NCBI GenBank assembly: GCA_944391235.1
Contig: CALXSV010000022.1
Location: 1 to 44,763 of the forward strand
Reading direction: 5' to 3'
Source: an uncultured Clostridia bacterium
Lineage (GTDB): Bacteria > Bacillota > Dehalobacteriia > UBA4068
Length of the DNA: 44,763 bases
Of this stretch, positions 7,223-12,768 are shown in pieces (position 1 is the stretch's first letter; each line of letters starts with the position of its first letter). The notes under the pieces are model-generated. The model was not told the origin of the DNA, did not search any database, and saw only the letters and a list, made by a program, of their open reading frames with translations. The position numbers were made by a program, and so were the translations under genes.

Positions 7223-7357
7223 TTAATTGTTTTGATGAGTTCTGGTGGCTACTTTTTCGGCAGCATCTGGTTGTAGATGGCCTTTTCCTTTGCCGCTGCT
7301 AAAGATAAATGCCATATGTTCTTCCTTCCGCCGTGGTATGTTGTCACCCGTTTTCAT
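7223..7357 (-). CDS. possible 44-aa ORF or gene remnant between the DHHW gene and the operon terminator
   Basis: Translation is MKTGDNIPRRKEEHMAFIFSSGKGKGHLQPDAAEKVATRTHQNN. Only a weak SD (AGGGTG, 8 nt) is present and no family is recognised. GC is noticeably higher than in the adjacent island genes. Confidence 0.15.
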   Translation of the reverse strand: MKTGDNIPRRKEEHMAFIFSSGKGKGHLQPDAAEKVATRTHQNN

Positions 7358-7383
7358 TTTTGGGACACCCTAAAAGCATCTAA

Positions 7384-8514
7384 TCAATTTAGAACATCAG
7401 AAATGTTTTTATCTTCGCTGAAATTTTTGATGTTATATAAAAACAGACACGTATCAATGTGATTATCGATAATATATTCATCAATATTTCCATTGTAATA
7501 GCGCGGATCAATTATGTGAATTGTTTCATAGTCATTCAGTAAAAATGGAACAAAAGCATTTGCATAGGAATCCTTTACAACGAGTAGATGCCTGTCGTTT
7601 TTTTGCGAGGTGCGGATTGTTATTTCGGGATGATTGCCATTAAAAAATATTTGATACTTGTCTTTTTGCGAAAGATGTTCCACCGCATAAACTGTATTGC
7701 TTTGCGTTTTTCCAAAATTGTATTCAACAGAATAGGGCTTTTCGTTCTTTCGGATATATATATCAATCCTATCAAATGCACAGTGTGTACCCAAAACCTT
7801 AGAATGAAGTGTACCCTGAAATTCTTCGGTCACGGTTTTTATCTCAAATTCACTTAGATCAGCTGACTGACCATTGCTTTCACACCAAATGCTATAAGCA
7901 AGAAATGCACCGTGCGTTGTCCAATGGTGATCTGTTTTGTAATACAATGCTTCCTGTCTGTGTGATGTAAACGATGGCTGTAGATCAATATAGGCTATAT
8001 CTTTTAGATTCTTATTGACTAAGTCATATGCAATTTGTTGATTGAACATAGGAGCGTTTCGGGGGAGTTTCTCATTCAAAACCATACCTGCTGTTGGAAC
8101 AAGCATAAGAGAAAATTTCAATTCCATATTCCTTTGTGCAAAATTATTTAATGCGTTTATATTTTCCGTTAGTTGATTTTCATCGAATTCACTGGCAAGC
8201 CATTTTTCAATCAGATACCCGTCCTCTGCTAAGTAAATTCCGTTGATTTCTTTGTTTCCTATCAATCGTTGAAAATCCGACTTGTCTGAAATCCAAAAAG
8301 TTCTTCCTGGAAATTGATCATCAATATATTTTTCTGTGTCCTCCATAAATTTCCCCGATAGTATATTATCAAGGGATAAGTAGGGCTTGGTTGAGAGATA
8401 GCGATTTTCACTTTCTGAAAATACCATATCCTTTTGTAGCAAAAAACAAACAGGCACGCTGAATAGTGCAGAGAGAAAGAGTACGATTGCAGTGATATGA
8501 TAAATTCTTTTCAT
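7384..8514 (-). CDS. DHHW family protein (AlgJ/AlgX/PatB-like extracytoplasmic O-acyltransferase partner), N-terminal membrane anchor
   Basis: 'LYYKTDHHWTTHGAF' is the eponymous DHHW motif. There is a single N-terminal TM 'ITAIVLFLSALFSVPVCFLL'. Start set at ATG 8514 (RBS AAGAGGA), 13 nt after the MBOAT stop. Confidence 0.85.
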   Translation of the reverse strand: MKRIYHITAIVLFLSALFSVPVCFLLQKDMVFSESENRYLSTKPYLSLDNILSGKFMEDTEKYIDDQFPGRTFWISDKSDFQRLIGNKEINGIYLAEDGYLIEKWLASEFDENQLTENINALNNFAQRNMELKFSLMLVPTAGMVLNEKLPRNAPMFNQQIAYDLVNKNLKDIAYIDLQPSFTSHRQEALYYKTDHHWTTHGAFLAYSIWCESNGQSADLSEFEIKTVTEEFQGTLHSKVLGTHCAFDRIDIYIRKNEKPYSVEYNFGKTQSNTVYAVEHLSQKDKYQIFFNGNHPEITIRTSQKNDRHLLVVKDSYANAFVPFLLNDYETIHIIDPRYYNGNIDEYIIDNHIDTCLFLYNIKNFSEDKNISDVLN

Positions 8515-8527
8515 TATGATCCTCTTC

Positions 8528-9940
8528 TTAAAACCTAAAATACAAAAATGGGTTGTATGTATCACCAACTAAAAAACTGACGCTTATAAAGAACAGACCA
8601 GCAGATAGGGCAGTTTTTACTACAGGGGTTACCCATTTTCCAACATTTGTTTTTGTTGATAGGCTTTTTCTCTTAGAAAGATTTATGCTAAACACCGCAC
8701 AGGCAATCCATAATATTGCATTTGAATAGAGCAAATAGCTTGCTTCCGAAGAAAAGAATCCGACTCCATTAAGACCGAACATCGCTTTTAAATACAACCC
8801 TACATTGGAAATATTGTCAAATGCAAAAATTACCCAACTGATTACCACAAGAATCAGCGTATAGATATGAGAAAGCAATCTATGTCTTGAAAGTCTTTTT
8901 AATAAAAAAACCTTTTCTATTATCAACAACACGCCGAAATACAAACCCCAAATAACAAAATTCCAACTTGCACCATGCCAAAAGCCTGTTAAGCACCATA
9001 CAATTAAAATATTAAAAAGCTGCCTTTTCAGACCTTGTCTGTTTCCGCCAAGCGGGATATAAACATATTCTCTAAACCACGAGCCAAGAGAGATATGCCA
9101 CCGGCGCCAAAACTCTGTGATACTTTTCGCGCAGTAAGGATAATTAAAGTTCTCTTTAAAATGATAGCCAAACATCTCGCCTAATCCGATTGCCATATCC
9201 GAATAACCCGAAAAATCGAAATAGATTTGAAAAGAAAAAGCAATAGCTCCAAGCCATGCTTCACTTGTGGGTAAAGAACTTAGCGAGCCTCCTGAGATCT
9301 GCTCCCAAAGTAATCCTATATTATTTGCCAGCAGAACTTTTTTTGCCAAACCAATAATAAAACGGTTGATTCCATAGGAGAAGCCACTTACTGTTACTTG
9401 ATGTAGATTTAGCTGTGTTTCAATATCCTTGTATTGTACAATCGGCCCTGCCACCAACTGGGGAAACATGGTAACATATGCGCCGAAACTGACAATGTTT
9501 TTTTGTGCATGGATTTCCCGTCTATATACATCAATCGTGTAAGATAGCGTTTGAAAAGTATAAAAGGAAATTCCTATCGGCAAAGCAATATCTATTAGTG
9601 GCAGTTCCACTCCTTGTAGTGCATTTATATTCTCGATGAAAAAGTTGTTATACTTAAAAAAGCCTAAAATCCCAAGATTTATCACTACTGAGCATATCAG
9701 CACAATTTTTGCCGCTTTGATTCTTTGATTAGAGTAAAATTTTTCAATCAATAATCCGTTTATATAGTCAAAAACTGTAGAAAACAGCATAATTAAAATA
9801 TAAACCGGTTCACCCCAAGTATAAAAAATCAAACTAAAAAAGAGTAAAACAAAATTTTTAAGCCTTTGGGGAACGATAAAATACATAAACAGTACAGCAG
9901 GCAGAAAGAAAAAGATAAATAATATACTACTGAAAACCAA
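8528..9940 (-). CDS. MBOAT family membrane-bound O-acyltransferase (AlgI/DltB/PatA-like)
   Basis: Polytopic membrane protein with '[26 protein letters not shown]' and '[11 protein letters not shown]' (the conserved MBOAT His). TTG start at 9940 with a strong SD (AAGGAGG, 7-nt spacing). Confidence 0.9.
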   Translation of the reverse strand: [470 protein letters not shown]

Positions 9941-11779: not shown

Positions 11780-11797
11780 AATTTCATTTTCCCTTTC

Positions 11798-12706
11798 TTA
11801 TTTTGAAATCGTATGCTTTTTTAAGTATTCAAGCCATTTATCACAGTAGGATTGTTTCAAATGAATACCATCTGTTGCAGCCTCCTCCGGCAGGCATCCA
11901 TTTTCATCAGAAACAGCAGCTCCAGTGTCGATATAATATACCTGCTTTTCCTCTGCCATTTGACGAATCAATGCATTATACTCATTTATTTTGTCGTTTT
12001 TTACATAACCGTGTGTTCGCGAGACGCTGTCTGTAACGGGCAGAATTTCCTGAACATAAATAATTGCTTGAGGATTTATCGTTTTGATTTCATCAATGAT
12101 CTGGCCATATTTTTCGATGAAAACACTGCTATACGGCCAACCTGTTTCATTAATCCCAAGCATAATATATACCTTGCTGAAATCAGTGCTATGCAACGCA
12201 TCCATTACAGAAAGTTTTTCGCCATCCTTATTGATAACGGGCTTAGTAAACACTGTATCAACCATGAGCCCCTTGTCTGTATATGAAATAGCATTCGACA
12301 GTCCTGTATATAAAAGCAGGCCCTCTGTTCTTGAGTCCCCGATAAACACAGCATCGTCAAAATAGTCATTTTCTACAGGCTCTGTTTCTGGCACGGGCTT
12401 TGCATAGTCATACGCGATTTCAGACTCTTTGCCTTCATTCCTGCTGTTTTCGCTTTCTTCAATTTGCGGCGTCGATTGTTCGGGCTGTGTTGTTGGATCT
12501 GTCAGCGATTCGCTGCTTGTTTTATCATTTGCTAAAGTTTCCGGCGATTGTATAGAGCGCCAAATCGCAGTTGCTATAGAGATTCCCACAAATACTGCGA
12601 GTAGGACTATCAGATAATGTATATATCTTTTAAGTCTTGGCTTTCTGCGTCTTGGCTTTCTGCGTCTTGCCAGATTTGAAGGATTATAGTTATTAGTCTG
12701 GTGCAT
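11798..12706 (-). CDS. membrane-anchored SGNH/GDSL hydrolase-fold protein (esterase or acyltransferase)
   Basis: Basic N-terminus, one TM 'LIVLLAVFVGISIATAIW', and an S/T/E/P-rich linker of about 70 aa. SGNH blocks are 'AVFIGDSRTEG' (I), 'LGINE' (III) and 'TDGIHL' (V). Confidence 0.8.
   Translation of the reverse strand: MHQTNNYNPSNLARRRKPRRRKPRLKRYIHYLIVLLAVFVGISIATAIWRSIQSPETLANDKTSSESLTDPTTQPEQSTPQIEESENSRNEGKESEIAYDYAKPVPETEPVENDYFDDAVFIGDSRTEGLLLYTGLSNAISYTDKGLMVDTVFTKPVINKDGEKLSVMDALHSTDFSKVYIMLGINETGWPYSSVFIEKYGQIIDEIKTINPQAIIYVQEILPVTDSVSRTHGYVKNDKINEYNALIRQMAEEKQVYYIDTGAAVSDENGCLPEEAATDGIHLKQSYCDKWLEYLKKHTISK
12635..12670. repeat. 15-bp tandem repeat (about 2.4 copies) inside the SGNH gene 5' end
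   Basis: TCTTGGCTTTCTGCG at 12635-12649 and 12650-12664, plus a partial third copy. It encodes 'RRRKPRRRKPR'. Confidence 0.9.
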
Positions 12707-12741
12707 AGCGAAATCCCCTTTTCTTTTGGTTCTATCTATTA

Positions 12742-12768
12742 GACGCTTGAGTGCAGCAGAAAGTTAAT
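12742..12768 (-). promoter_or_regulatory. candidate ECF-type promoter upstream of the island operon
   Basis: Minus strand reads ATTAAC - 17 nt - CGTCTAA. The -35 'AAC' is at 12763-12768, and the -10 'CGTC' at 12742-12745 lies 36 nt upstream of the ATG. Generic ECF consensus is (G)AAC-N16/17-CGT(C). Confidence 0.3.

Follow-up and report, generated by a model that had tools for sequence, protein, structure and literature searches.

The closest described counterparts of the six-gene cluster considered here, which lies on contig CALXSV010000022.1 of an uncultured Clostridia bacterium (GCA_944391235.1; the whole analysed stretch of 44,763 nt is referred to as the window), are the SigV/RsiV regulatory system and the acetylation systems that pair a membrane-bound O-acyltransferase (MBOAT) with an SGNH-fold protein. 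SigV is a sigma factor of extracytoplasmic function (ECF) with RsiV as its anti-sigma factor, and in Clostridioides difficile pdaV belongs to the SigV regulon. Promoters of the SigV/ECF30 type carry AAC in the -35 element, an adjoining T-tract and CGTC in the -10 element, the T-tract being the most critical for SigV (PMC5758882). In PatA, FXYXXF is the acyl-shuttle motif, which is auto-acetylated from acetyl-CoA and passes the acetyl group to the SGNH partner; this shuttle was demonstrated for PatA/PatB and proposed for all MBOAT–SGNH pairs, and DltB has no fused FXYXXF tail (PMC12148441). PatA1/PatB1 of Bacillus cereus, an MBOAT and a DHHW protein, O-acetylate the secondary cell-wall polysaccharide, and the catalytic residues of PatB1 are assigned to a Ser nucleophile, a DxRY oxyanion block and a DHHW block (PMC9487903). 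For the alginate (Alg) and cellulose (Wss) systems, terminal transfer has been proposed to fall to a second SGNH-fold enzyme, with contacts mediated by a small protein (PMC10302187).

An earlier reading of the letters (the original prediction) had described the cluster as a self-regulated envelope O-acylation system, with an ECF sigma/anti-sigma pair embedded among acyltransferase genes. The six genes are co-directional on the minus strand, running from 12706 down to 7384 in the list of open reading frames (ORFs) in the order SGNH, DUF4358, sigma, anti-sigma, MBOAT and DHHW, with spacings of 18, 23, -11, 12 and 13 nt; the start of the anti-sigma gene overlaps the sigma stop by 11 nt. These gaps are exactly those reported before, all motifs quoted then are present in the translations, and the domain assignments hold, since each of the six proteins scores above the curated Pfam cut-off, used for the domain calls, in its assigned domain. 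With one promoter, one terminator and gaps of at most 23 nt or an overlap, the six genes probably constitute one autoregulated operon with an RsiV-type switch and an extracytoplasmic O-acetylation relay, an explanation judged here as a whole. The SigV/RsiV-like pair inside the operon very probably switches on the cassette of the other four proteins.

The sigma factor contains the domains Sigma70_r2 (53.4 bits) and Sigma70_r4_2 (56.2 bits) and no region 3, i.e., regions 2 and 4 only. The anti-sigma factor contains PdaC (formerly DUF4163; 38.2 bits) and DUF3298 (40.8 bits), both above the cut-off; DUF4179 (22.9 bits) is below the cut-off of that family. The architecture is that of RsiV, comprising an N-terminal sigma-binding segment, one transmembrane helix, a DUF4179 region and the PdaC/DUF4163 plus DUF3298 ectodomain, and the ectodomain matches the structure of RsiV from Bacillus subtilis (PDB 5JEN, E 9.8e-16). 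Judged by profile matches, the sigma factor is a clear relative of SigV and the anti-sigma factor a clear relative of RsiV, neither passing as an equivalog.

The signal-peptidase site A66-Q-A68 of the anti-sigma factor aligns with A64-Q-A66 of B. subtilis RsiV, and in the amphipathic region IPVIG...TFRE both IPVIG and TF.E are identical to RsiV. Residues 60–84 around site-1 represent the best-conserved stretch of the protein, with 12 of 25 residues identical to RsiV versus about 25% overall. The window protein remains hydrophobic (I, L, F) where RsiV has I73, I76 and I80, and the position of M67 is occupied by Ala; in RsiV, lysine at M67, I73, I76 or I80 makes the protein constitutively cleaved (PMC6066255). 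Both the AXA site-1 and the amphipathic helices that gate its cleavage were found in the window protein, which supports a gating predicted to be the same as in RsiV, i.e., ligand-dependent exposure to signal peptidase followed by intramembrane proteolysis.

Related loci were collected in two scans. The first used an alignment of the anti-sigma family as query against one genome per species and returned 35 loci, biased towards regulators; the second used a DUF4358 alignment against metagenomes and returned 80 further loci, biased towards DUF4358. After mapping of the six proteins on all loci, layouts were counted in those non-identical loci that have 1.8 kb or more of flanking DNA at either end, the counts being affected by seeding and by near-duplicate contigs. 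The layout SGNH-DUF4358-sigma-antisigma-MBOAT-DHHW was represented by 15 loci, SGNH-DUF4358-MBOAT-DHHW by 14, SGNH-DUF4358-sigma-antisigma by 10, SGNH-DUF4358 alone by 8, MBOAT-DHHW-SGNH-DUF4358 by three and sigma-antisigma alone by two; the regulator-less SGNH-DUF4358-MBOAT-DHHW is the commonest in the DUF4358-seeded sample. The six-gene arrangement is not due to chance, because the same order recurs in at least 15 non-identical full-flank loci, with 51–75% protein identity and in different genomic contexts.

SGNH stands directly upstream of DUF4358 wherever upstream DNA is available. According to this record of layouts, the four enzyme genes form an independent cassette, a subset of loci has the regulator pair inserted between the two cassette halves, and SGNH-DUF4358, not MBOAT-DHHW, is the half most constantly linked to regulators. 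The existence of regulator-less loci bears out the earlier view of a regulator pair embedded in an acyltransferase cassette; the fixed stand-alone module then proposed gives way to one layout of a modular regulon with SGNH-DUF4358 as the constant partner. In a rough neighbour-joining tree of SGNH domains the layouts are interspersed, which suggests that they arose by repeated gain, loss or relocation.

At the head of the operon the sequence AACTTTC-N13-GCGTCTAAT was found on the minus strand, with the -35 box AACTTTC (AAC plus T-tract) at 12765-12759 and the -10 box CGTCTAAT at 12745-12738, the end of which lies 31 nt upstream of the SGNH start codon. The AAC -35 element, the T-tract and the CGTC -10 element characteristic of autoregulatory ECF30/SigV promoters are all present, and AACTTT-N14-CGTCTAAT has a single exact match in the window. 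A position weight matrix (PWM) was built from aligned upstream regions of related loci and validated on the independently seeded set. The operon site scores 33.6, whereas no other position in the 44.7 kb window, on either strand, exceeds 9.5, and therefore there is no second site in the window, for example before the MBOAT gene.

In the genome-derived loci outside the training set (L001-3, L004-6, L012, L016, L018, L033 and L035-37), the best hit of the 10–20 kb locus lies just upstream of the first cluster gene. Of the 42 distinct cases in the DUF4358-seeded metagenome set, 29 have their locus-wide top hit on the correct strand and at most about 350 nt before the first cassette gene, compared with about one of 42 expected by position alone; the 29 span all layouts, including cassettes without a sigma factor in cis, and several further loci of this set show the same boxes with a 1-nt change in spacing. 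The same promoter type heads regulator-less cassettes (L076/77/79, score 28.3), two-gene operons (L081/L088, 27.8) and stand-alone sigma/anti-sigma loci (L018, 34.7; L031, 40.0; L027). Self-regulation, as originally predicted, is thereby supported at the level of promoter motifs, with a single SigV/ECF30-type promoter before the first gene and related motifs in most related loci. Since this promoter heads regulator-less cassettes and stand-alone regulator loci alike, one regulon, the parts of which are encoded together or apart, is the simplest reading.

The adjacency of regulators and enzymes might instead be incidental, the sigma/anti-sigma pair regulating other genes and the acyltransferase genes being expressed independently. 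The regulators and the enzyme pairs are indeed separable in evolution, as indicated by four reduced layouts interspersed on the rough tree, but the 12–23-nt gaps, the 11-nt overlap, the lack of a second promoter motif inside the operon, and the occurrence of the same promoter type both before enzyme genes without regulators in cis and at the stand-alone regulator loci L018, L031 and L027 make this very improbable.

The alternative order MBOAT-DHHW-SGNH-DUF4358 was observed in L107 (2643-6949), L108, L113 and L114. In L107 (19.8) and L108 (20.6) the SigV-type motif precedes MBOAT, which is again the first cassette gene; in L113 the motif is weaker and offset. A 492-aa ‘orphan’ RsiV-like protein, P0052, is encoded on 40 contigs (L004 10001-11479; also L005, L006 and L023). 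Its gene results from an in-frame deletion by which SGNH residues 1-218 became fused to the anti-sigma factor, starting at residue 8 of the latter, with loss of DUF4358, sigma and half of SGNH, and it keeps a SigV-type promoter upstream (31.6). A sigma/anti-sigma fusion was rejected for this protein, the N-terminal part being SGNH residues 1-218, and, given its presence on 40 contigs, it represents a decayed operon fixed in one Oscillospiraceae lineage.

The carriers from the first scan are all metagenome-assembled genomes (MAGs), labelled Oscillospiraceae, Clostridia, Eubacteriales, Lachnospiraceae, Candidatus Faecousia, Coprobacillus and Anaerorhabdus, and the cluster member names are likewise only MAG labels (Acutalibacteraceae, Oscillospiraceae, Lachnospiraceae, Coprobacillus, Anaerorhabdus), which are approximate as taxonomy. 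The carriers comprise uncultured MAGs labelled Oscillospiraceae, Acutalibacteraceae and Lachnospiraceae and also Erysipelotrichaceae, so that the earlier focus on Clostridia is too narrow. More than 2,300 SGNH clusters (90% identity) match at E <= 1e-10, the cassette context having been checked in sampled ones only.

The MBOAT protein (Pfam MBOAT 90.4 bits, 1.8e-25) combines the catalytic His in GFWHGASW with the C-terminus FLYFRF, i.e., the His and FXYXXF tail of the PatA type. Across all fetched loci, FLYFRF terminates 44 of 45 distinct homologues and FFYFRF the remaining one. The DHHW protein matches Pfam DHHW (96.4 bits, 2.8e-27) and ALGX (46.4 bits, 5.4e-12), and its best match in the structural database is B. 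cereus PatB1 (5V8D; E 1.5e-33), aligned nearly over the full length (residues 35-368). Its KDSYA, DPRY and TDHHW segments align with Ser337, D357-x-R359 and DHHW of PatB1, so that all active-site blocks are represented; KDS[FY], DxR[YFH] and DHHW are kept in all 50 distinct homologues and DxRY itself in 48 of them.

In one lineage (L035, L036, L037, L042 and L043) two overlapping ORFs (residues 1-255 and 254-470) take the place of a single MBOAT gene, which is due to one of three causes, namely a frameshift, a programmed shift or a recurring assembly error, several independent contigs being concerned.

The SGNH protein (Pfam Lipase_GDSL_2 72.6 bits, 7.6e-20) consists of a basic N-terminus, one transmembrane helix, a low-complexity linker and a catalytic domain with GDSR, GINE and DGIH; the motifs GDSR, GxNE and DG[IV]H are present in 92-96 of 96 distinct homologues. 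As the catalytic motifs of MBOAT, DHHW and SGNH are kept across 45-96 distinct homologues, all three are under selection as active enzymes. The AlphaFold2 (AF2) model of the SGNH protein has a mean confidence (pLDDT) of 94.1, and its closest folds are sialate O-acetylesterases (TM 0.71-0.73), followed at lower ranks by PatB of Campylobacter jejuni (rank 8), PAF acetylhydrolases, the SGNH domain of OafA and acetyl-xylan esterases; by sequence, the closest relative of solved structure is the sialate O-acetylesterase of Bacteroides vulgatus (E 5.7e-9). Acetyl chemistry is thus a well-supported prediction for this protein. Transferases and esterases are mixed among the top fold matches, and the fold alone does not separate the two.

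The DUF4358 protein (Pfam DUF4358 81.6 bits, 5.3e-23) belongs to a family in the alignment of which VYxSSGATAEE is invariant and R..QK, YIP.E and Y.I.C are conserved; some members have a plain transmembrane anchor in place of the lipobox Cys. Its AF2 model is of alpha/beta type (pLDDT 87.5). Comparison with the PDB gave no sequence match and no significant fold match (best E 0.11, TM below 0.4), and an AlgF-like or lysozyme-inhibitor-like nature of DUF4358 accordingly found no support in that comparison. In the searchable literature, DUF4358 occurs in one proteomics table (PMC9250206).

The mechanism proposed for the operon begins with a resting state in which the RsiV-like anti-sigma factor would hold the SigV-like sigma factor at the membrane. 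Binding of an extracellular ligand to the PdaC/DUF3298 ectodomain may open the membrane-proximal AQA site to signal peptidase, and intramembrane proteolysis would then release the sigma factor. The freed sigma factor is expected to transcribe from the AAC-T-tract/CGTCTAAT promoter before SGNH, so that its own level and the four enzyme genes would rise together in positive autoregulation. MBOAT would load acetyl from cytoplasmic acetyl-CoA onto the Tyr of the C-terminal FLYFRF, and the PatB1-type DHHW protein would take it over on its catalytic Ser and transfer it to a cell-wall glycan, either peptidoglycan or a secondary wall polysaccharide. SGNH and its obligate DUF4358 partner may have this same polymer as their substrate, serving either as a second or terminal transferase, like AlgX/WssF, or as a trimming acetyl esterase; their role is the weakest step of the mechanism. 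The outcome would be a wall that withstands a hydrolase, or some other insult to the envelope, encountered in the gut.

A number of results weigh against this interpretation, some of which concern the regulators. The best NCBIfam model of the sigma factor, SigV NF053879 (174.2 bits, E 1.5e-51), is a near miss below the 190-bit equivalog cut-off, and that of the anti-sigma factor, RsiV NF052658, aligned over residues 5-280, reaches 161.7 bits where 250 would be needed. The three critical lysozyme-binding residues of RsiV are all replaced (S169->A183, P259->Y268, Y261->A270). Among the 16 contact residues listed in Table 2 of PMC5014341, mapped by pairwise HMMER alignment at about 25% identity with D225 left unmapped, four of 15 mappable positions are identical (E88, Y255, E256, G260), or five of 16 if T165 is counted, a match that requires a one-residue shift in the TQASS loop and is absent from the printed HMMER alignment; by either count the identity is no better than the background of about 25%. 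Further contact positions are changed (H139->P, K137->D, S93->Y, Q166/A167/S168->A/F/H), and the two loops with which RsiV enters the lysozyme active site read TAFHA and AYGAAG in the window protein versus TQASS and APGYMG in RsiV. The same two loops are nearly invariant within the anti-sigma family of the window (TGG..F.P..I; Y..A.G.AG).

The lysozyme trigger suggested by the SigV/RsiV precedent is therefore not supported by the sequence, with none of the critical residues and few contacts kept, and the anti-sigma factor appears to be a conserved receptor for a ligand that may be other than c-type lysozyme. The sensor may answer another cue, such as another muramidase or wall hydrolase, a wall fragment, bile acids, or membrane or envelope stress, which would make the operon a general envelope response or one of different specificity; this falls only just short of an even chance. 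Strong conservation of the differing loops within the family is what would be expected of a conserved but different ligand surface, the score below the RsiV equivalog cut-off points the same way, and not all DUF4163/DUF3298 proteins bind lysozyme, as the precedent of Rv1980c indicates (PMC5014341). Bile acids raise a Turicibacter DUF4358 protein about 2-fold (PMC9250206); this evidence is weak, and the orthology is uncertain. On the other hand, among characterised families RsiV gives the best match, and both the cleavage site and the switch helices are retained; gut carriers are exposed to host lysozyme, and the B. subtilis binding surface tolerates some change, the single substitutions P259A and Y261A leaving lysozyme binding not abolished.

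A further difficulty for the relay is that in many genomes SGNH-DUF4358 follows the same promoter while MBOAT-DHHW is missing from the surrounding 6-10 kb, so that SGNH/DUF4358 may serve a function for which an acetyl relay is not required. One such function would be that of an O-acetyl esterase unit (Ape1-like editing or removal) outside the transfer relay, with the operon mirroring patA-patB-ape1 and the two-gene operons representing esterase-only responses. It would suit the closest solved relatives, by sequence and by fold, which are carbohydrate O-acetylesterases, the canonical GDS, GxN and DxxH blocks of hydrolytic SGNH enzymes in the SGNH protein, and the occurrence of SGNH-DUF4358 without adjacent MBOAT/DHHW in at least 18 full-flank loci (10 with and 8 without the regulator pair). 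It is nevertheless rather unlikely: the O-acetyltransferase C. jejuni PatB (rank 8) and the SGNH domain of OafA, likewise a transferase, are also among the fold hits, MBOAT-DHHW may sit elsewhere in genomes that have SGNH-DUF4358 only, and co-induction of an esterase with the transferase would bring no obvious protective gain in a Gram-positive wall.

The acceptor polymer of the proposed relay is also without a clue from nearby genes of the window. Genes for glycan synthases, polysaccharide synthesis, pyruvylation or the S-layer were not found linked to the operon in the window or at related loci, the contexts of which vary. By analogy, peptidoglycan as the acceptor fits the SigV precedent, with oatA in the B. 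subtilis sigV operon, and a secondary wall polysaccharide fits the PatB1 precedent. That the acceptor is a secondary cell-wall polysaccharide or a teichoic-acid-type polymer, not peptidoglycan, with an effect on surface-protein anchoring or charge and not on muramidase resistance, is plausible at somewhat less than an even chance. PatB1, which alone among DHHW enzymes has been characterised biochemically, O-acetylates the secondary wall polysaccharide (PMC9487903) and is the best structural-database match of the DHHW protein, and CcsH/CcsI of C. difficile show that MBOAT/DHHW pairs can serve other glycans (PMC7710045). However, identity to PatB1 is low, the polysaccharide, pyruvylation and S-layer genes that would go with such an acceptor are missing from the window and related loci, and the known SigV outputs oatA and dlt target peptidoglycan or teichoic acids against lysozyme (PMC5758882).

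The promoter evidence is lessened by the cassettes L106, L111, L118 and L121, in which no SigV-type promoter was seen, and by the selection of the PWM training sites with a regular expression. Finally, all carriers are uncultured MAGs or metagenome contigs, and the interpretation as a whole was drawn from sequence.

A more specific form of the proposal combines a four-component, OatA-independent peptidoglycan acetyl relay of Gram-positive gut anaerobes with DUF4358 as an obligate new subunit, the cassette as the core regulon of the SigV-like sigma factor, and a receptor re-tuned off c-type lysozyme; in this full form it is improbable. If the autoregulated acetylation operon is confirmed, it would represent a second, OatA-independent route for on-demand wall acetylation in Gram-positive-type commensals, with a bearing on their tolerance of host lysozyme and other wall-active factors. 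Clostridia and Erysipelotrichia of the human, mouse and chicken gut carry the cassette widely, and it has no studied member. DUF4358 would gain a concrete, testable role, the natural series of RsiV-like receptors with loops unlike the lysozyme-binding ones would be useful for understanding how a receptor class shifts specificity, and the conserved promoter offers an easy handle for defining the regulon in any carrier genome.

The features of the operon are collected in Table 1, where the DHHW coordinates start from an internal ATG of the listed ORF.

Table 1. Features of the SGNH–DUF4358–sigma–anti-sigma–MBOAT–DHHW operon in the window
Feature	Position	Strand	Basis
ECF30/SigV-type promoter	12738..12765	-	motif match, PWM, comparison of loci
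SGNH/GDSL protein, membrane-anchored, 302 aa	11798..12706	-	Pfam Lipase_GDSL_2
DUF4358 lipoprotein, 155 aa, lipobox FSGC	11312..11779	-	Pfam DUF4358
ECF sigma factor, SigV-like, 164 aa, GTG start	10794..11288	-	Sigma70_r2 + r4_2; NCBIfam SigV best model
RsiV-like single-pass anti-sigma factor, 283 aa	9953..10804	-	Pfam, NCBIfam, PDB 5JEN match
MBOAT acyltransferase, 470 aa, TTG start	8528..9940	-	Pfam MBOAT
DHHW SGNH-fold O-acetyltransferase (PatB1/AlgJ-like), membrane-anchored, 376 aa	7384..8514	-	Pfam DHHW + ALGX
Intrinsic terminator hairpin, 16-bp stem, 7-nt loop, U-run	7164..7202	-	RNA folding

The strong downstream terminator reported earlier was confirmed by direct folding (minimum free energy -26.4 kcal/mol, z = -6.3, none of 200 shuffles as good), a simple terminator scanner having missed the hairpin. 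It sits 180 nt past the DHHW stop, not immediately behind the gene. The hairpin has an A-run on one flank and a T-run on the other and lies 39 nt past the stop (7125) of a convergent HAD-hydrolase gene, for which reasons it is probably bidirectional and ends both transcripts. Upstream of the operon, a terminator-like hairpin at 13257-13228 belongs to an HD-domain gene, so that the unit has a boundary at either end.

Between the DHHW stop and the terminator there is a 30-aa ORF, 7315-7223 on the minus strand (MAFIFSSGKGKGHLQPDAAEKVATRTHQNN, with the ribosome-binding-like GGAAGGAAG), the end of which, 7223, was the left edge of the originally delimited region. It has no Pfam match, is probably spurious as a gene, and was treated as noise because it is conserved in no related locus. 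The right edge of that region, 12768, happens to take in the -35 box of the promoter. From the HD-gene hairpin to the ECF promoter, about 460 nt (12766-13228) are apparently non-coding; the only ORF in the upstream gap is one of 72 aa on the plus strand (12751-12969), the reality of which is doubtful, and an Rfam scan of the whole window gave no riboswitch or leader match in the 520-nt upstream gap.

The neighbours in the window are ordinary chromosomal genes, encoding DegV, a HAD hydrolase, an HD protein, YunB, a class A penicillin-binding protein (PBP), YebC, LepA and MurJ. Within 11 kb upstream lie the genes of YunB (sporulation; 13847-14629, plus strand), the class A PBP (14788-17568, plus strand) and the lipid II flippase MurJ (22144-23778, minus strand), and this adjacency is probably coincidental, as it is not conserved in related loci.

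Compared with known systems, the operon is neither dlt nor OatA, as had been predicted. DltA, DltC and DltX are absent from it, carriers of this type being missing because MBOAT bears its own FXYXXF shuttle tail, and MBOAT scores 147 bits against the DltB model with its cut-off of 375; in contrast to OatA, no AT3 (Acyl_transf_3) domain was detected by Pfam in any of the six proteins. CcsH/CcsI of C. difficile, predicted to O-acetylate cellulose, are likewise a clostridial MBOAT/DHHW pair, but always stand beside the cellulose synthase genes ccsA/B/Z, none of which occurs near the window operon or its relatives.

PatA/PatB/Ape1 of Neisseria and Campylobacter resemble the operon in that a single cluster combines an acetyl-Tyr-shuttle MBOAT with two SGNH enzymes, one of them an extracytoplasmic transferase. 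The transferase partner is of the DHHW type in the window, whereas theirs is PatB (DUF459), and the Gram-negative cluster has neither DUF4358 nor the sigma pair. The esterase role of the window SGNH protein is putative, and C. jejuni PatB is among its fold matches. The Pseudomonas systems AlgI/J/F/X (alginate) and WssH/I/G/F (cellulose) share with the operon an MBOAT, an AlgJ-like protein, a second SGNH-fold enzyme and a small extracytoplasmic accessory; the window gene order parallels wssF-G-H-I, and the DHHW protein also matches Pfam ALGX. In contrast to them, the second enzyme of the window matches Lipase_GDSL_2 only, without an ALGX hit, and is not of the AlgX type; DUF4358 is alpha/beta, matches no solved chain (AlgF included, if in the library), and did not prove AlgF/WssG-like; no polysaccharide synthase is linked, the neighbours being housekeeping genes that vary between loci; and the envelopes are of Gram-positive type. 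Because these tests of fold-family membership failed, the resemblance is one of analogy only, with homology not shown.

The closest enzymatic precedent is PatA1/PatB1 (and PatA2/PatB2) of B. cereus/anthracis, in which an MBOAT with an FXYXXF tail is likewise followed by a membrane-anchored protein with Ser, DxRY and DHHW; unlike it, the window operon adds SGNH, DUF4358 and the ECF pair, which are not in that system as reviewed (PMC7710045, PMC9487903). The original prediction rightly cited the Gram-negative PatA/PatB, but not this closer MBOAT plus DHHW pair. On the regulatory side, SigV/RsiV (B. subtilis sigV-rsiV-oatA-yrhK, C. difficile, Enterococcus faecalis; ECF30) shares the two-domain ECF sigma factor, the single-pass anti-sigma factor with a DUF4179 region and PdaC/DUF3298 ectodomain, the AXA site, the amphipathic helices, the autoregulatory AAC plus T-tract/CGTC promoter and a wall O-acetylation enzyme in the same operon. 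Unlike it, the output in the window is MBOAT/DHHW plus SGNH/DUF4358 and not the AT3-SGNH fusion OatA of B. subtilis, the regulators stand in mid-operon and not at the head, the proteins score below the equivalog cut-offs, and the lysozyme-contact residues are not conserved.

In the searchable full-text literature no paper mentioned both RsiV and MBOAT, and MBOAT was never combined with lysozyme, ECF sigma and anti-sigma terms, in agreement with the earlier view that the combination is uncharacterised; overall, the original interpretation is partly supported. With MBOAT/DHHW pairs known and SigV/RsiV well studied, this is not a new kind of system. Its parts are of known kinds, and their conserved combination is that of a SigV regulon output with acetylation of the PatA1/PatB1 type; the novelty lies in the conserved cassette of four genes that includes DUF4358, in the position of this cassette within a SigV-like regulon, and in the divergent ligand loops of the receptor.

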